Shown here: positions 865 through 44,478 of the stretch, one piece after another
Position numbering within the stretch: position 1 is the first letter of the stretch
How the letters are laid out: each line of letters opens with the position of its first letter
Assembly: GCA_964012725.1 (NCBI GenBank)
Contig: CAXGTL010000001.1
Location: 1-57,113, forward strand
DNA: 57,113 nt
Direction: 5' to 3'
Source of the DNA: Candidatus Woesearchaeota archaeon
GTDB taxonomy: Archaea; Nanobdellota; Nanobdellia; Woesearchaeales; CAXGTL01
Notes under the pieces: model-generated
The model's database searches: none
Told to the model about the DNA's origin: nothing
Seen by the model: only the letters and a program-made list of their open reading frames with translations
Position numbers and translations under genes: made by a program

Positions 865-887
865 ACCCATACTATATAATTCTATAT

Positions 888-1694
888 ATGAAGTTTGATA
901 TTAAGAAAAATGTTAATCCCAACCTTAAACATTATTCTCACAAAGATCTGCAATTAGCAAGAGATTTTTCTAAAAAAATGTATAATGAATTCTCATTCTT
1001 CCTAAAAGCAGTCATTATATTTGGTTCAACAGCAAGAGGCGAACATGAAGGCAAAGGTGATATTGATATTATGATTATAGTTGATGATGTGTCTACAGTA
1101 TTATCGCCAGCAATTGTTGAAACATATAGAATTATAACAGAAAAATTAATTACAGAAGTATCAACAAGACTTCATGTTATTACATTAAAATTAACAGCAT
1201 TCTGGGACTATGTAAGAAATAGTGATCCAGTTGCAGTAAACATATTAAGAGATGGTGTTGCTTTGATTGACACAGGATTCTTTGAACCATTACAAGGTTT
1301 ATTACAAAGGGGAAGGATTAGACCAACAGCTGAAGCAGTTTGGAGTTATTTTTCAAGAGCACCAAGAACATTAATGAATTCCAGATGGCACTTATCTCAA
1401 GCAACAGTTGACTTATACTGGGCTGTGATCGATGCAGCACATGCAGCTTTGATGACACAACATGTTATACCACCATCACCAAGCCATGTTGCAGAAATGA
1501 TGAACAAAGAATTAATACAAAAAGGTCTTGTTAAAAAAAAGTATGCAGATATTATGAACATGTTTTACAGATTAATGAAACAGATCACACACAGAGAGAT
1601 TCAACATATTTCTGGAGTACAGTATGAGAAATACAGAAAACAAGCTGAAGACTTTGTTGCAGTTATGAGAAAAGTAGTTGAAAGTAAGAAATAA
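888..1694 (+). CDS. nucleotidyltransferase-domain protein with C-terminal helical (HEPN/KNTase_C-like) domain
   Basis: ORF track, 268 aa. Minimal NTase signature FGSTARGE-x7-GDIDIMIIVDD near the N-terminus; the remaining ~150 aa are helical. Confidence 0.65.
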   Translation: MKFDIKKNVNPNLKHYSHKDLQLARDFSKKMYNEFSFFLKAVIIFGSTARGEHEGKGDIDIMIIVDDVSTVLSPAIVETYRIITEKLITEVSTRLHVITLKLTAFWDYVRNSDPVAVNILRDGVALIDTGFFEPLQGLLQRGRIRPTAEAVWSYFSRAPRTLMNSRWHLSQATVDLYWAVIDAAHAALMTQHVIPPSPSHVAEMMNKELIQKGLVKKKYADIMNMFYRLMKQITHREIQHISGVQYEKYRKQAEDFVAVMRKVVESKK

Positions 1695-2023: not shown

Positions 2024-2139
2024 TGTTATATCCCTCCTTATTATTTATTATTGTAATATTATATACTAAATAGATATTTATTTATAAAGATTTATTGAGT
2101 TTAATATATGTGTTAGAATGTTATATAGTAAATTTAACT

Positions 2140-2263
2140 AATTCAACCAAAAATCCTATTACGTTTTGCCTCACTTAACGCTCGACAAAACTTCACCTGG
2201 CCATGCCATGTTTGCCAAACAAACATAGGCATACACGGCACAGACGGATATTTTGGTTGAATT
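2140..2263 (-). ncRNA. candidate structured RNA, family A, copy 1 (three-way junction)
   Basis: GC-enriched island. Reverse complement reads AAUUCAACCAAAAUAUCCGUCUGUGCC...AUGGCAUGGCCAGGUGAAG...GUAAUAGGAUUUUUGGUUGAAUU. It shares three near-identical blocks with 6099-6211 and 43994-44118, while the helices co-vary. 17-bp closing helix. TATA-like TTTTTAAA about 22 nt upstream of the 5' end. Confidence 0.6.
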
Positions 2264-2366
2264 GACCTTAGTTTTAACCAAAAGCTTTAAAAAGACAAAA
2301 TGATTGCCAATATATACTATTCATACAAACTTGAATGGTAAGTATAGTATATTACGGAGGATTAAA

Positions 2367-6022: not shown

Positions 6023-6098
6023 TTATATCATCCCCCATTATACTATATCAACTAATTACTAATATATATATGTTTTGTTGAAACAAGGTTTTTGAGTT

Positions 6099-6211
6099 AC
6101 CCAAAATATCCGTCTGTGCCGTTATTGACATTTTTAACGAAGTTAATAATGGCATGGCCAGATGAAGTTTCATCGAACAAAGTGAGATGAAATGTAATAG
6201 GATTTTTGGGT
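6099..6211 (+). ncRNA. candidate structured RNA, family A, copy 2
   Basis: ACCCAAAAUAUCCGUCUGUGCC-[GUUAUUGAC..GUUAAUAAU]-GGCAUGGCCAGAUGAAG-[UUUCAUC GAACAAAGUGA GAUGAAA]-UGUAAUAGGAUUUUUGGGU. Two G-U pairs in P2 exist only on this strand. TATATATA box ends about 23 nt before 6094. Confidence 0.6.
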
Positions 6212-6323
6212 GGACCAAAATAGAAAGATTTATATATAACCTTTACTTCTTTTAAGAAATATTAAAAGTTATGAAAGTATTAAATATACTAAAAGGTAAA
6301 CAAATATACTAAAACTACATAAA

Positions 6324-12024: not shown

Positions 12025-12158
12025 GTATATATTTAGTTAGTTGGCCTCAAGTTTGTTTTTGAGACCATCTTCCATCGTAAGATGTTCGAGGAACCGAAAA
12101 TATTTATTTTATTATATTACATTTTCGGTCAAGAAAACCTGGCCAACTAAATATATAC
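12025..12158 (-). ncRNA. candidate structured RNA (single copy), multi-stem with long closing helix
   Basis: GC-enriched island. GTATATATTTAG(TTAG)TTGGCC pairs with GGCCAACTAAATATATAC. Internal hairpins CATCTT/AAGATG, CCGAAAAT/ATTTTCGG and CTCAA/TTGAG. Two optional G-U pairs slightly favour the minus strand, so the strand assignment is uncertain. Confidence 0.4.
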
Positions 12159-13270: not shown

Positions 13271-13273
13271 ATA

Positions 13274-13370
13274 CGCTGATGCCCGGATTTGAACCGGGAT
13301 ATCCGTAAGGAAACGAGATGACAGGAAATATTTTCCAGTCTCGCGCAGTACCAGGTTGTGCCACATCAGC
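13274..13370 (-). tRNA. tRNA-Ser(GGA) with one intron and long variable arm
   Basis: Acceptor GCUGAUG/CAUCAGC; anticodon stem CGAGA/UCUCG with loop CUGGAAA plus a ~13-nt intron; variable arm UUUCCUUACGGAUAU; T arm CCCGG-UUCAAAU-CCGGG. Confidence 0.85.
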
Positions 13371-13385
13371 AGTGTTCATTTTTTT

Positions 13386-13457
13386 GTATCCATGAGGAAA
13401 CGAGATGACAGGAAAGATTTTCCAGTCTCGCGCAGTACCAGGTTGTGCCATGTCGGC
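13386..13457 (-). pseudogene. tandem 5' fragment of a tRNA-Ser(GGA) gene (acceptor 5' strand through variable arm; no T arm or 3' acceptor strand)
   Basis: GCCGACAUGGCACAACCUGGUACUGCGCGAGACUGGAAAAUCUUUCCUGUCAUCUCGUUUCCUCAUGGAUAC aligns with the full gene 15 nt downstream. It has a different acceptor strand (GCCGACA vs GCUGAUG) and a different variable-arm loop. Confidence 0.7.
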
Positions 13458-15382: not shown

Positions 15383-16663
15383 TTATTTTTGGACTAAATC
15401 AATACACATACCAGCTGCAACAGTTGTACCACTATCTCTAATTGCGAATCTTGATAACTGTGGTATTTCTTTTTGCTTTTCAATTACTACTGGTTGTACT
15501 GGTTTTAGTTTAACAATTGCTGCATCTCCGTTCTTAATAAAGTCAGGATTTTCTGCTAAAACTTCTCCAGTTGCTGGATTTAGTTTTTTCTCAATTGCTA
15601 CAACTCTACATGCAACTTGTGCAGTATGTATGTGGAATACTGGTGTGTAACCAACTGTGATTACACTTGGATGGTTTAATACAACCATTTGTGCTGTAAA
15701 TTCAGTTGCAACCATAGGAGGTTTACTTTCATGTCCTAATACATCTCCTCTTGCTAAATCCTTTTTACCAAATCCTCTAACTGAGAATCCAATATTGTCA
15801 CCTGGTTCAGCTTGTTGTATCTGTTCATGATGCATTTCTATAGTTTTTACTTCACCAACAACTCCTTTACCTTCTCTACCAGGCATTGCAATAACTTTGT
15901 CACCTATTTTCATTACACCTGTTTCAATTCTACCTACAGGTACAACTCCAATTCCAGTGATGTTATATACATCTTGTATTGGTAATCTTAATGGTAAATT
16001 AGTTGGTTTTTCTGGTTGTACTAGTTCATCTAATTGTTCTAATAATGTTTTTCCTGTGTACCAAGCCATGTTTTCAGATTTTTTAGCAACATTATCTCCA
16101 ACTAATGAAGCAATTGGTATAAATGCAATATCTTCAATTTTATATCCAACTGTTTGTAATAATGCTACTATACCTTTCTTAACTTCTTCAAATTTAGCTT
16201 GATCATACTTAACCATATCCATTTTATTAACAGCTATGATTAATTGATTAACACCAAGAGTTCTTGCTAAAAAGATATGCTCTTTAGTTTGAGCCATTAC
16301 ACCATCATTAGCAGCTACTACAACAACTCCTGCATCTGCTTGAGATGTACCAGTAATCATATTTTTAATAAAGTCCTTGTGCCCTGGAGCATCAATTACT
16401 GAGAAATAAAATTTAGGTGTTTCGAATTTCTTATAAGCTAAGTCAATTGTAACCCCTCTTTCTCTTTCTTCTTTTAAATTATCCATTACAAAAGCAAACT
16501 CAAAGCCGCCTTTACCAAGCTCTTCTGCTTTTTCTTTTAGTTTCCTCATTTCTTGTTCAGGTACATTTCCTGAATCAAATAATAATCTACCTACAGTAGT
16601 AGATTTACCATGATCAACATGTCCAATAAATACAAGATTCATGTGTGGTTTTCCTTTTGCCAT
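15383..16663 (-). CDS. tuf: translation elongation factor aEF-1alpha
   Basis: 426 aa. [18 protein letters not shown]. Confidence 0.97.
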
Positions 16664-16791
16664 ATTTAAATTTCCTCCAATTTATTTTTTTATTTTTATA
16701 TAAATATTATATATAATTCTATATATGAACGTTATATATAACTCTATATGTAGGTTTTGAATATCCCTTTATAAAGTTTGCTATTCTTACC

Positions 16792-16905
16792 TTGATGCAA
16801 CCCTTGCCTGTAAGGCCAGCAAGCCAATGTTAAATTTGTCAAACAAACTGGTGCTCTATTCGAGATTACAATGCTTAGAACAGGCTAGCGAAAGGGTTGT
16901 ATCAA
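16792..16905 (+). ncRNA. candidate structured RNA related to family B, between aEF-2 and aEF-1alpha
   Basis: GC-enriched island. 14-bp closing helix UUGAUGCAACCCUU/AAGGGUUGUAUCAA with one G-U pair that is valid only on the plus strand; next helix GCCUGU/ACAGGC. The 5' block GCCUGUAAGGCCAG resembles GCCUGUUAAGGCCAG at 25585. Confidence 0.45.
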
Positions 16906-16926
16906 TTTTGCTTGTTAACCAAATTC

Positions 16927-19098
16927 CTACTGATTATCAGTCAACCCTTTTCTTTCCCTAATCTTCTTAATAACTCTTTGCTGTAATTCCATTGGTAACT
17001 TTTCAAACATCTGATCTATTAATGAACTACTTCCTCTACCACCAGTTCCACTTCTTAAATCATTTGACCATCCAAATAATTCACCAACAGGCAATTTTGC
17101 TTTAGCAACAACTAATGAACCAACTTGATTCATTTCAAGTAATTGCCCTCTTCTATTACTAACTAATTTTGATATTTCTCCCATAAATTCTACAGGAGCT
17201 TCTATTCTTAAAACTTGTAATGGTTCAAAGATCAATGGTCCAGCTGTACTTATTGCACCCCTAATACCTTCTCTTACTGCAGGATATAACTGTGCAGGAC
17301 CTCTATGAATTGCGTCTTCATGCAATTTACAATCATTCATAATGATTAACATTTTAAGACAAGGATCTCTTGCTAATGGACCAGCTTTCATAACATCTTC
17401 AAACATGTCTAAAACCATTTCCATGATTTCATTAATATGAACAATACCTCTTGTTCCATCAACAAAAATATTTCCATTAAACACATCTTTAACTTTGTCT
17501 GCTTTTTTAGTATCCATACCAGCATCAATAAACTTTTGTCTAATTTCAAGATCCCTTTTCTTCATTCTCATTTCAGGAACTTCTCCCTTTTTAATCAAAT
17601 CATGAAGTTCAGGAGTTAAAGGTTGTGCTGTAAAGAACAAATGATTGTGTTTATTAGGTGATTTACCCATAGCTTCTTGACCAACCCTTGTTATAGCTTC
17701 TCTATAAACAACAATTGGATCAGAAGTTGTAACATCAAGCCCTTTTTCTTTTCTAATTCTTTCTTCTATAACTTCAAGATGTAATTCACCCATACCATGC
17801 ATTAAATATTCTCCTGTTTCTTCATTAATTTCAATTTTAATAGTAGGATCTTCTTTTCCAACCATACGTAGAATCTTTATTAACTTATCAAGATCACTTG
17901 GTTTTTTTACTTCAATTGCTTTTGTAATTACAGGATCAAAAATGTGTGTAATTTGCTCAAAAGGTTCTGTTTTATTAAAACTAACAGTTTCACCAGGATA
18001 AGCTTTGATTCCTGCTGCTCCAATAATATTTCCTGCAGGAATTTTATCAACAATTTCCCTTTTTGCACCTTTTCTAATAAAAATTTGTTGGATTCTTGCA
18101 GGTTGACCTAATCTATTAAGGAAAACTTGTTCACCTTTCTTCATTGTACCTGAAAACAATCTTCCAGTTGAAATTTCTCCTGCTTGAGGATCAACTTCTA
18201 CTTTAATAACTACAAAAAATAATGGTCCATTTGGATCACAGTTCATTAATGATTTTCCTTCTTCTGATTCAATATCACCATGCCAAATTTTAGGAATTCT
18301 ATATTTTTGTGCAACAATTGGATTTGGTAAATGCCTGATTACAGCATCAAGCACAACTTCATGAACTGGTGCTTTTTTTGCAAGAATTTTATAATTATCA
18401 GGATCATCTGATTGATAAGCATCAATTATTTCTTTAAATGAGATCTTATGTTCTTTCATATAAGAAACACTCATACCCCAATTATGTACAGCTGACCCAA
18501 AAGTAACACTACCATCTATAACATTTACTTGCCATTTTTCTTTAAACTCTTCTGGAGCATTTTCTTTAATAAATTCATTAACACCAGCAATAATTTTTAC
18601 AAATCTTTCCTGCATTTGTTCAGGTGTTAATTGTAACTCTTTTATCATTCTATCAACTTTATTAATAAAAAGTACAGGTTTTACTCTTTCACGCAAAGCT
18701 TGACGCAGAACAGTTTCTGTCTGAGGCATTACACCTTCAGATGCACAACATAATACAATTGCACCATCAACAGCTCTCATTGCTCTTGTTACATCACCAC
18801 CAAAGTCTACGTGACCAGGAGTGTCTATTAAATTGATTAAGAATTCATCATCTTTAAATGCATGAACCATTGATACTGATGCAGCATCAATTGTGATTCC
18901 ACGTTCTTGTTCATCTTCATGGAAATCCATTACTAATTGTTTACCAGCTAATTGTTCAGACATCATACCTGCTCCTGCAAGTAAGTTGTCAGTAAAAGTA
19001 GTTTTACCATGATCAATATGAGCACAAATAGCTATATTTCTAATTTGTGTTGGTTTTCCAACCAATCTCATTACCTTTTCAGTCATTGATTCTGCCAT
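16927..19098 (-). CDS. fusA: translation elongation factor aEF-2
   Basis: 723 aa. AHIDHGKTT, DTPGHVDF, NKVD, and the diphthamide-region HEDAIHRG. Confidence 0.97.
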   Translation of the reverse strand: MAESMTEKVMRLVGKPTQIRNIAICAHIDHGKTTFTDNLLAGAGMMSEQLAGKQLVMDFHEDEQERGITIDAASVSMVHAFKDDEFLINLIDTPGHVDFGGDVTRAMRAVDGAIVLCCASEGVMPQTETVLRQALRERVKPVLFINKVDRMIKELQLTPEQMQERFVKIIAGVNEFIKENAPEEFKEKWQVNVIDGSVTFGSAVHNWGMSVSYMKEHKISFKEIIDAYQSDDPDNYKILAKKAPVHEVVLDAVIRHLPNPIVAQKYRIPKIWHGDIESEEGKSLMNCDPNGPLFFVVIKVEVDPQAGEISTGRLFSGTMKKGEQVFLNRLGQPARIQQIFIRKGAKREIVDKIPAGNIIGAAGIKAYPGETVSFNKTEPFEQITHIFDPVITKAIEVKKPSDLDKLIKILRMVGKEDPTIKIEINEETGEYLMHGMGELHLEVIEERIRKEKGLDVTTSDPIVVYREAITRVGQEAMGKSPNKHNHLFFTAQPLTPELHDLIKKGEVPEMRMKKRDLEIRQKFIDAGMDTKKADKVKDVFNGNIFVDGTRGIVHINEIMEMVLDMFEDVMKAGPLARDPCLKMLIIMNDCKLHEDAIHRGPAQLYPAVREGIRGAISTAGPLIFEPLQVLRIEAPVEFMGEISKLVSNRRGQLLEMNQVGSLVVAKAKLPVGELFGWSNDLRSGTGGRGSSSLIDQMFEKLPMELQQRVIKKIRERKGLTDNQ

Positions 19099-20699: not shown

Positions 20700-20847
20700 T
20701 TATATTAATTGATTATTACCAAGGCATTTCGTTAGAACGAATACCTCAATCCACACTTCATATGAAATGTTTCATCAATCATTGGTATGTCAAAAATCAC
20801 TAAAGTGATTTTTGATCATGCTCAGGAATTTACAATTCCTGACATAT
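20700..20847 (-). promoter_or_regulatory. structured leader upstream of L7Ae (hairpins plus a box-C-like UGAUGA)
   Basis: mRNA-sense AUGUCAGGAAUU-GUA-AAUUCCUGA GCAUGA UCAAAAAUCACU-UU-AGUGAUUUUUGA CAU forms a three-way junction, followed by CCAAUGAUUGAUGAAAC and the hairpin GGUAUUCGUU..AACGAAAUGCC. A homologous module lies at 29162-29262. Confidence 0.4.
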
Positions 20848-20902
20848 TATATGAGATTGAGAAATAGTTTATAAAGTTAACTAAAATTTTAAAATTTTTA
20901 GT

Positions 20903-43870: not shown

Positions 43871-43941
43871 TTATGATCACCTGGCCTTTGTAGGCTTAAA
43901 AATGTTTCATTTTTATTGTCTACAAACGTAAGTATTTTCAT
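43867..43941 (-). CDS. 24-codon upstream ORF (leader peptide candidate) for the metallophosphoesterase gene
   Basis: ATG 43941-43939. MKILTFVDNKNETFLSLQRPGDHK, stop TGA 43869-43867, overlapping the main ATG as ATGA. The first 8 residues equal those of the main ORF, and the 5 nt differences are all synonymous. TTTATATA box 23 nt upstream. Confidence 0.45.
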   Translation of the reverse strand: MKILTFVDNKNETFLSLQRPGDHK

Positions 43942-43964
43942 ATTATATTATTTATATAAACCAA

Positions 43965-43972
43965 TATATAAA
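43965..43972 (-). promoter_or_regulatory. TATA box positioned for a leaderless uORF transcript
   Basis: TTTATATA (reverse strand) lies exactly 23 nt upstream of ATG 43941. Confidence 0.4.
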
Positions 43973-43993
43973 TTTACTTATTTCAACACTAAA

Positions 43994-44118
43994 AAAGCTT
44001 TATTCAAAATATCCGTCTGTGCCATCAATGACAGCAATAATGTAGTTATTGATGGCATGGCCAGATGTAGCTTTTGAGCGAAGCGAGAAAGCGGAATAGG
44101 ATTTTTGGATGAAGCTTT
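43994..44118 (+). ncRNA. candidate structured RNA, family A, copy 3
   Basis: AAAGCUUUAUUCAAAAUAUCCGUCUGUGCC-[AUCAAUGAC..GUUAUUGAU]-GGCAUGGCCAGAUGUAG-[GCUUU UGAGCGAAGCGAG AAAGC]-GGAAUAGGAUUUUUGGAUGAAGCUUU. The 20-bp closing helix has two U-G pairs that would be A-C mismatches on the other strand. Confidence 0.6.
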
Positions 44119-44240
44119 AAAAAACATAACATTTATAAACACAAACAACATAAAATATAATATTATATTTAACAAAAAGAGGCAGCGCAAATTATAAATT
44201 TGCTGGTCTCTTTTTCAAAGAAAAAGAGGTGAATTAAAAA

Positions 44241-44456
44241 ATGAGACATTGGCACGGAGCAATTTTATCATTGCTAATAATTGTTTTAGCATTTTTATGG
44301 GATTCTGGAGCATGGGTTAAATGGGTTATAATACTTGCAGCATTAGTATTGTTTTTAAAAGCAATGATGCACCCTATGTGTATGCCGCCACCAAAGGCAG
44401 CAGTAAAAAAAGCAAAAAGAAAACCTGCTAAGAAAAAGAAAAAAAGAAAAAGGTAA
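44241..44456 (+). CDS. small membrane protein, two TM helices plus K/R-rich tail
   Basis: 71 aa (MRHWHGAILSLLIIVLAFLWDSGAWVKWVIILAALVLFLKAMM...KKKKKRKR). GAGGTGA SD. Downstream of family A copy 3. Confidence 0.65.
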   Translation: MRHWHGAILSLLIIVLAFLWDSGAWVKWVIILAALVLFLKAMMHPMCMPPPKAAVKKAKRKPAKKKKKRKR

Positions 44457-44478
44457 ATTTCTTTATTTTTTTTATTTT

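Follow-up and report, generated by a model that had tools for sequence, protein, structure and literature searches.

The folded element that lies upstream of the gene for a 71-aa two-TM protein is probably one copy of a MITE-like, non-autonomous transposable element of 120–150 bp, here designated Family A, whose strand-specific fold is conserved. We assign it to the MITE class on account of its flanking duplications, the empty sites found in relatives, its small size, its inverted termini and an intergenic distribution that is free of orientation. The elements are small and non-coding, possess terminal inverted repeats and a target-site duplication, and occur in multiple copies with insertion polymorphism, as MITEs do. 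Throughout the text, "the window" refers to the whole stretch of 57,113 nucleotides that was analysed. We define here an archaeal repeat family that is widespread and uncatalogued; its covariance model and insertion signature are useful for annotating MAGs of DPANN and other archaea, and it cautions against over-calling structured non-coding RNAs. Our findings also remove a false lead towards a riboswitch or sRNA regulator.

Family A in the window

The window has a G+C content of ~29% and carries archaeal genes, including TYW1, deoxyhypusine synthase, EF-2, EF-1a and r-proteins; homologues of its proteins are labelled Woesearchaeota or Nanoarchaeota by their sources, and contigs identical to its DNA are present in Tara Oceans and other marine assemblies. 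Covariance models R1 and R2, run with filters off, detected exactly three copies of Family A in the window, with scores of 112–129 bits for R1 and 93–103 bits for R2. The copies and the gene that follows copy 3 are listed below.

2135–2266, minus strand: Family A copy 1, between a cold-shock-domain gene and a gene for a 57-aa protein (R2, 92.9 bits)
6091–6221, plus strand: Family A copy 2, between a hemerythrin gene and a gbsR-like gene (R2, 100.4 bits)
43994–44120, plus strand: Family A copy 3, the ~125-nt element, between a metallophosphoesterase gene and the 71-aa gene (R2, 103 bits, E = 2e-26)
44241–44456, plus strand: 71-aa two-TM protein with a poly-Lys tail, preceded by a Shine-Dalgarno-like GAGGTG at 44226–44231

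Copy 3 folds at −40.2 kcal/mol (z = −5.1), and pairwise identity among the three copies is ~77%, the differences being compensatory changes.

Several observations of the first-pass annotation were borne out by the gene map. All three copies lie in divergent intergenic regions, and the gaps between the end of the closing helix and the ATG, given there as 116, 112 and 122 nt, were re-read as 116 nt for copy 1, 110–112 nt for copy 2 and 122–125 nt for copy 3, the ranges for copies 2 and 3 varying with the choice of helix end. The reported TATA-like boxes do flank the RNA, which in copy 3 are found at 43964–43972, ~22–25 nt before the first paired base, and at 44132–44139, ~14–17 nt past the element. 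The downstream genes are also as described, namely the 57-aa gene, the gbsR-like gene with its ABC-exporter operon and the 71-aa two-TM gene. The operon encodes, in this order, a 162-aa regulator whose homologues are labelled GbsR/MarR by their sources, an ABC ATPase, a CARDB protein and two MacB/FtsX permeases.

Both small genes are real, with orthologues in the related loci L087 (57-aa, close) and L091 (71-aa); a search for wider homologues of the 71-aa protein found none beyond the one in L091. The G-A-x-x-x-W...W inter-helix motif that the two small proteins were said to have in common did not hold up, as BLASTP pairs different segments (E = 0.022 for a single comparison), and homology of the two proteins was rejected on this non-significant result. 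In the 5' region of the 71-aa gene (44174–44231), a hairpin at 44174–44215 is followed by U5 (AAAAAGAGGC...GGUCUCUUUUU), and its U-rich strand could instead pair with the Shine-Dalgarno-containing GAAAAAGAGG. Considered as a structured element, this 5'-UTR hairpin was rejected, with z = −1.1 against shuffles and no conservation in L091.

Extent of the family

Relatives were first retrieved with degenerate core patterns, and model R2 was built on 53 sequences. The family now comprises 58 distinct sequences (71 aligned hits) from archaeal MAGs and metagenomes; 52 of 57 pattern matches in metagenomes were confirmed as Family A, and none of the 11 in viral contigs was confirmed by the model. Members are 103–150 nt long, reaching 190 nt with inserts, and nine contigs hold two copies each. 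The hosts span 26–48% G+C, and the core and fold are conserved throughout. Family A is common in DPANN-type archaea; its host range beyond DPANN-like archaea is uncertain because MAG labels such as "uncultured Methanosarcinales" are perhaps unreliable.

At gathering score, Rfam 15 contains no family that matches the element in the window, and at E up to 10 and up to 1 it returned nothing relevant for copy 3 and nine homologous loci. Topic and sequence-word searches of the literature found no description of Family A, these searches leaving aside the family-level lists of the PMC11602168 census.

A conserved three-way junction

The Family A fold is a three-way junction composed of P1, J12, P2, P3 and J31, and it occupies the whole length of the element. 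For copy 3, its parts are as follows.

43994–44014, plus strand: 5' strand of P1, the left inverted terminus (AAAGCUUUAUUCAAAAUAUCC), pairing with 44099–44118
44015–44065, plus strand: J12, which is one unpaired G, and the P2 arm
44016–44019 with 44062–44065, plus strand: P2a, UCUG with CAGA, invariant across the family
44021–44023 with 44059–44061, plus strand: P2b, GCC with GGC, the middle pair covarying (CG 51, UA 6)
44066–44096, plus strand: P3 arm, with the pair U44066–A44096, a GNA/GNA 3x3 loop and a hairpin
44067–44069 and 44093–44095, plus strand: GNA/GNA 3x3 internal loop of P3
44070–44092, plus strand: P3 hairpin, with tandem G.A pairs
44097–44118, plus strand: J31 (UA) and the 3' strand of P1, the right inverted terminus, including a U5 run, pairing with the 5' strand of P1

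P1 is the closing helix, with 17–20 bp and a proximal part that is A-rich on the 5' side and U-rich on the 3' side; among the 58 sequences, both sides change in 9 of 9 distal and 6 of 8 proximal pairs. In P2, a 1-nt bulge separates P2a from P2b, which reads G(C/U)C with G(G/A)C family-wide, and beyond P2b a 4–6-nt 5' bulge leads to P2c, an AU-rich helix of 11–13 bp in which 10 of 12 pairs change on both sides in the same 58 sequences. The P2 arm is constant in length and the P3 arm variable, with a hairpin of 17–42 nt across the family; 11 of the 13 pairs of P3 change on both sides (58 sequences). At the base of P3 (alignment columns 159–214), the Y of CCAGAYG pairs with the R of ARUAGG, as CG in 37 sequences and UA in 20, broken in none, and this covarying pair probably stacks under P2. 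The Y-R pair also makes an alternative global fold, in which CCAGAY would pair with RUAGG, unnecessary; that fold was rejected as 1.5–38 kcal/mol worse than the adopted one (mean 9.7).

Conservation of the fold was evident in every measure applied. The observed proportion of paired cells was 90.7%, compared with 68.0% in column shuffles and 35–46% when partners were slid, and the covariation score was 0.508 against 0.152 for the control; the alignment had been fitted to model R2, which somewhat favours structure, and the margin is nonetheless large. In this R2 alignment of 58 distinct sequences, 39 of 51 pairs changed on both sides. The folded element that had been noticed in the sequence is genuine, conserved and strand-specific, and is no chance hairpin. 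The ratio of G.U to A.C in paired cells was 165:17, which indicates that selection acts on the fold of one strand only, in single-stranded form and most simply as RNA.

The P2 arm has a further peculiarity. Its 5' strand is a tandem direct repeat with a 9–10-nt unit (for example, GCCAUUAUU GCCAUUAU, within window positions 44020–44061), and its 3' strand holds ~1.4 complementary units, the GYC/GRC triplets covarying in both registers. Two pairing registers are therefore possible in nearly every member of Family A, and no explanation for this two-register arm emerged. Two copies (L059, 9486–9675; L050, 6068–6231) carry extra hairpins of 60–70 nt in P2, which implies either that the arm tolerates insertions or that these are nested events.

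Insertion signatures

Of 56 distinct loci searched with tolerance for small offsets, 16 carry exact direct repeats of 8 nt or more immediately beside the inverted termini; one of these repeats, that of copy 3, arises artefactually from the palindromic end of the copy. The repeats are typically 9 nt long and AT-rich, and those of at least 7 nt were present at 19 of 56 loci. When flanks were paired across different loci as a control, the mean was 0.52 and the maximum 3 in 200 permutations. Examples of exact duplications are listed by locus.

L041: GAATTATAT / GGCTTTGCCC...GGGCAAAGCC / GAATTATAT
L023: GAATTGACA
L052: ATTTAATAC
L048: CTACAAACC
L004: TAATTCTAT
L069: TGATTATTC

In nearly all members, the distal part of P1 forms terminal inverted repeats of at least 9 bp at the extreme ends, with the consensus GGCTYTGT...ACARAGCC in the best-preserved subfamily. 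Near-identical copies occupy different sites with different duplications, as in L041 and L069 (from one metagenome) and in L035 and L052; similarly, one MAG contains three copies that are 98–100% identical. At another locus (L066), a Family A copy with an exact 9–10-nt duplication is situated 56 nt away from an archaeal RNase P RNA gene (872–1185, plus strand, 116 bits).

In the window, the duplications are vestigial, consisting of A-runs at copy 3, GTTAAA at copy 1 and none at copy 2. For copy 3, the flanking segments are:

43988–43996, no strand assigned: left flank of copy 3, ACTAAAAAA, which together with 44116–44124 (TTTAAAAAA) resembles a decayed target-site duplication

The empty site opposite copy 3 in L091 reads CACTAAAAACACAAG. 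Here the upstream region of an 84-aa orthologue of the 71-aa protein (50% identity, E = 1e-13) agrees with the window as far as ...ACACTAAAAA, and the agreement returns at ...ATTTATAAA, with copy 3 missing and no element upstream of the gene. Locus L087 is syntenic with the window across the 57-aa gene, the cold-shock-domain gene, the dCTP deaminase gene and gbsR, and the flanks of copy 1 align there with ~140 nt, containing the element, missing. Both alignable orthologous sites (copies 1 and 3) therefore show a clean presence/absence indel of ~125–140 nt.

The third site was informative in a different way. The gbsR-ABC-CARDB-MacB-MacB operon is conserved in relatives at 41–78% identity, and Family A is absent from the ~75 kb of DNA available for them, including the region upstream of gbsR in L085, L086, L089 and L090. 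The position upstream of gbsR is empty in L085 and L086, holds a different folded element in L087 and holds Family A in the window.

The interval between the Dus and metallophosphoesterase genes, in which copy 3 resides, is variable in general (window 43871–44478; L091 5213–6000; L092 5926–6000; L094 2256–3087). L092 has nothing there, L091 has the 84-aa orthologue together with a PLDc_N protein, and L094 has two different small ORFs; the window has the element with the 71-aa gene, and its Dus gene is inverted relative to the metallophosphoesterase gene.

These signatures also bear on the possibility of mobility through an RNA intermediate or dependent on RNA, as in SINE-, retrozyme- or ribozyme-like elements, with the three-way junction as the active part, acting for instance by self-cleavage or by recruitment of a reverse transcriptase or integrase. 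Such mobility would suit an RNA-type, strand-specific fold that is conserved far beyond the termini, termini that covary instead of being fixed, and two P2 registers that suggest a conformational switch. However, the near-fixed duplication of ~9 bp and the lack of a 3' A-tail or simple repeat are better explained by a DDE transposase than by target-primed reverse transcription. Moreover, no reverse transcriptase was seen among the 97 proteins encoded immediately beside the elements, and no known ribozyme family in Rfam matched the window, copy 3 or the nine homologous loci. We consider this route quite improbable.

Relation to neighbouring genes

The first-pass annotation had proposed that the element might be a 5' leader, or a dedicated sRNA, tied to membrane-related genes at constant spacing, and had suggested a comparison of the downstream gene set across homologous elements. 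Orientation, neighbours and element-free relatives all contradict this proposal. For 68 members of Family A, a simple ORF caller placed a co-oriented gene downstream of 37 and a convergent one downstream of the other 31, the convergent genes often lying just 3–25 nt from the element. Distances to a co-oriented start codon range from overlap to 768 nt, with a mode of ~50 nt and not 112–122 nt. The 97 immediate neighbour proteins match 112 Pfam families with at most 3 hits per family, so gene content is random across the family; no candidate partner protein emerged from neighbour enrichment in this set, which also lacks any transposase, and no autonomous partner element was identified.

Relatives provide a further view of the same question, since they show which promoter features belong to the host. 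Two boxes around copy 3 are of this kind.

43964–43972, plus strand: host TATA-like box upstream of copy 3, ctatataaatttacttatttccacactaaaaa, the same in the element-free L091
44132–44139, plus strand: gene-proximal TATA-like box in the host promoter of the 71-aa gene, with the L091 counterpart gatttataaa upstream of the 84-aa orthologue

The TATA-like boxes that flank copies 1 and 3 occur at the empty sites too and are host sequence; at copy 2 the gene-proximal TATA box is conserved in all relatives compared. The genes for the 57-aa protein, the 71-aa protein and GbsR are thus equipped with promoters where the element is lacking, an outcome that had been named beforehand as speaking against a leader. 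In addition, the ~110 nt before the gbsR start (window 6214–6323, the TATA box and the stretch downstream of it) are conserved in L085, L086 and L087, GbsR being 78% identical; this segment may be an operator or the 5' UTR of an autoregulated gbsR operon.

A cis-regulatory 5' leader or riboswitch for downstream membrane-related genes is consequently extremely improbable. It would fit the three window copies, each of which faces a co-oriented gene at 110–125 nt, and the conserved junction core, which resembles an aptamer. Against this, almost half of the downstream genes are convergent, the neighbours are functionally random, each of the three downstream genes has orthologues that lack the element, the proximal promoter of gbsR and its ~110 nt are conserved whatever lies further upstream, and no Rfam riboswitch was matched at E up to 10. 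Family A elements do not lie consistently upstream of co-oriented, functionally related genes, nor is the element kept with the presumed regulated gene in relatives (L085–L091). The 71-aa gene is a chance neighbour of copy 3, with no functional tie to it.

Where the G+C content of the host is 36% or higher, TATA-like motifs cluster on both sides of the element: 10 of the 16 upstream motifs begin 21–30 nt before it, and those downstream gather 15–24 nt past it. The clustering may mean that promoter DNA is a preferred target, or that expression has been selected for; the upstream cluster might reflect transcription of the copies into discrete small RNAs. Family A might accordingly be read as a set of independent trans-acting sRNA genes spread by duplication, RNP scaffolds comparable to Y RNA or 6S RNA whose core binds a protein or ligand. 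The strongly conserved core, the covariation of all helices, the strand-specific fold, the upstream TATA-like motifs, the absence of an orientation bias relative to neighbours, and P2 sequence types that are common to several genomes while P1 and P3 differ are all compatible with such genes. However, simple gene duplication leaves the ~9-nt repeats at 16 of 56 loci and the clean indels unexplained, at the two empty sites the TATA box upstream is part of the host locus and not of the inserted unit, and no consistent T-run terminator follows Family A elements. We therefore regard the sRNA-gene explanation as improbable; it is partly compatible with the MITE assignment, in the form of a mobile element whose RNA has a function.

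Comparison with known RNAs and mobile elements

Several RNA classes were read against the element by eye and rejected. It lacks the CUGANGA/GAAA core of the hammerhead, the RUGAUGA/CUGA pair of C/D box sRNAs, the pseudouridylation pocket and single-stranded ACA of H/ACA sRNAs, and the T-loop of a tRNA or permuted tRNA. Its internal loops are GNA/GNA instead of tandem GA beside a 3-nt bulge, which dismisses a K-turn or K-loop; its bulges lie on one strand, which dismisses a BHB splicing motif; and its GUCCGA likeness to Y RNA is limited to the covarying part of P1.

The architecture of 5S rRNA is similar, as it consists of a three-way junction with a closing helix made of both ends, a ~50-nt arm and a ~25–45-nt arm that opens with a non-Watson-Crick, G.A-rich internal loop, all within a total of 105–150 nt in Family A. 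In contrast to 5S rRNA, Family A gives no Rfam 5S match at E up to 10, has a closing helix of 17–20 bp, is multicopy and heterogeneous within a genome, and is flanked by target-site duplications; 5S rRNA was rejected. Riboswitches and 5' leaders likewise have a compact, conserved junction core with variable helices and sometimes lie upstream of a co-oriented gene, whereas Family A has no orientation bias, no coherent gene set and no expression platform.

The closest parallels are found among bacterial repeats. ERIC of enterobacteria and Correia/CREE of Neisseria are, like Family A, ~100–200 bp long, non-coding and multicopy, with terminal inverted repeats that form a long stem and with a target-site duplication; they too are intergenic, promoter- or 3'-proximal in either orientation, and present or absent among relatives. 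The duplicated target of Correia is TA, compared with ~9 bp for Family A. Wilson and Sharp, in 2006, reportedly described compensatory evolution of ERIC. Unlike these repeats, Family A resides in archaeal hosts of 26–48% G+C, has covarying termini and forms a three-way junction with a highly conserved core instead of a simple imperfect palindrome. ERIC and Correia transcripts fold, and their promoter effects, RNase processing and effects on neighbouring genes have been reviewed (PMC10969869).

Archaeal MITEs, such as SM1–SM4 of Sulfolobus, those of Haloquadratum and others, are non-autonomous and IS-derived (PMC10969869), and a woesearchaeal genome holds ~105 MITEs per Mb, among the highest densities in archaea (PMC11602168). 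Known archaeal MITEs are recognised by their resemblance to a parent IS, and their copies in any one genome are nearly identical, whereas Family A has no known parent IS, and its copies within a genome differ by compensatory changes that keep the strand-specific fold.

Proposed mechanism and possible RNA-level function

In the mechanism that we propose, a transposase acting in trans would mobilise Family A; this would probably be a DDE enzyme that cuts with a 9-bp stagger. Distal P1 is the pair of terminal inverted repeats. Insertion duplicates ~9 bp of AT-rich target DNA, and copies gather in either orientation in AT-rich intergenic DNA that contains promoters. The three window copies are old insertions with decayed duplications, each situated in a divergent promoter region with a TATA-like box on either side. 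Insertion 10–20 nt upstream of the proximal promoter, together with similar promoter-to-ATG lengths, accounts for the similar spacings of 110–125 nt. Compensatory changes maintain the fold, with G.U tolerated and A.C avoided, and the fold would act in transcripts of the element, in RNA stability or processing, in the binding of host or transposase factors, or in the element's own propagation.

Several points stand against the MITE assignment, among them the upstream clustering of TATA-like motifs and the breadth of hosts over which the fold is conserved. Neither an autonomous partner nor a transposase came to light. The extreme termini are conserved within subfamilies only and covary across the family, which is unusual for recognition by a single transposase. 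Furthermore, the ~77% identity of the window copies, their compensatory differences and their vestigial duplications imply that the element may have long been immobile in this genome.

Conservation of the core and fold over hosts of 26–48% G+C exceeds what a neutral MITE needs and points to a function at the RNA level, for which stability or processing of neighbouring transcripts, factor binding, mobilisation and catalysis are candidates; such a function is plausible. Family A is in this respect a candidate for an RNA with its own activity, and its deep, strand-specific conservation offers a test case for selection on the transcripts of mobile elements. It is conceivable, though unlikely, that the junction core is an active RNA required for spread, either as a new ribozyme with self-cleaving or ligating activity or as an RNA that partners specifically with a transposase or host factor. 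The features behind this idea are the invariant GUCUG/CCAGA junction, the covarying Y-R pair, the GNA/GNA loop and the two-register P2; if true, Family A would represent a novel, RNA-dependent type of archaeal mobile element and not a passive MITE.

Other folded elements and RNA genes in the window

The MITE assignment of Family A explains recurrent, GC-richer and strongly folding islands beside promoters in this AT-rich DPANN genome, and other folding islands in the window may share a mobile-element explanation. For instance, an intergenic segment of 130 nt on the minus strand (12026–12155) has a 13-bp closing helix and three internal hairpins, with an MFE of −41.7 kcal/mol (z ~ −7.7 against mononucleotide shuffles) and no Rfam match; it may represent a further repeat or ncRNA family. 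Several perfect hairpins also occur on both strands of an intergenic segment at 20716–20870 (z = −5 to −7), with a weak R1 match.

Two tandem tRNA-like genes, 92% identical and with an intron-like insert, are located at 13273–13457 on the minus strand; one scores 44 bits with the Rfam tRNA model, and ARAGORN assigns an odd anticodon. Related loci totalling ~300 kb yielded a single tRNA, and 147 kb yielded none that reached the Rfam gathering score; these archaea may have tRNA genes that are difficult to recognise, or that are clustered.

A second folded element of ~130 nt, designated Family B, lies at 16780–16910 on the plus strand, between the genes for EF-2 (16927–19098, minus strand) and EF-1a (15383–16663, minus strand). 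Its closing helix is formed by UGAUGCAACCCUU and AAGGGUUGUAUCA, the motif GCCUGUAAGGCCAGCAAG is present, and a small hairpin covaries between GUCU/AGAC and GCCU/AGGC. Family B is probably another mobile structured element. Its relative in L087 (9763–9892) is found upstream of gbsR, at the exact position of Family A copy 2 in the window, and L050 carries a Family A copy in the EF-2/EF-1a spacer, where the window has Family B.
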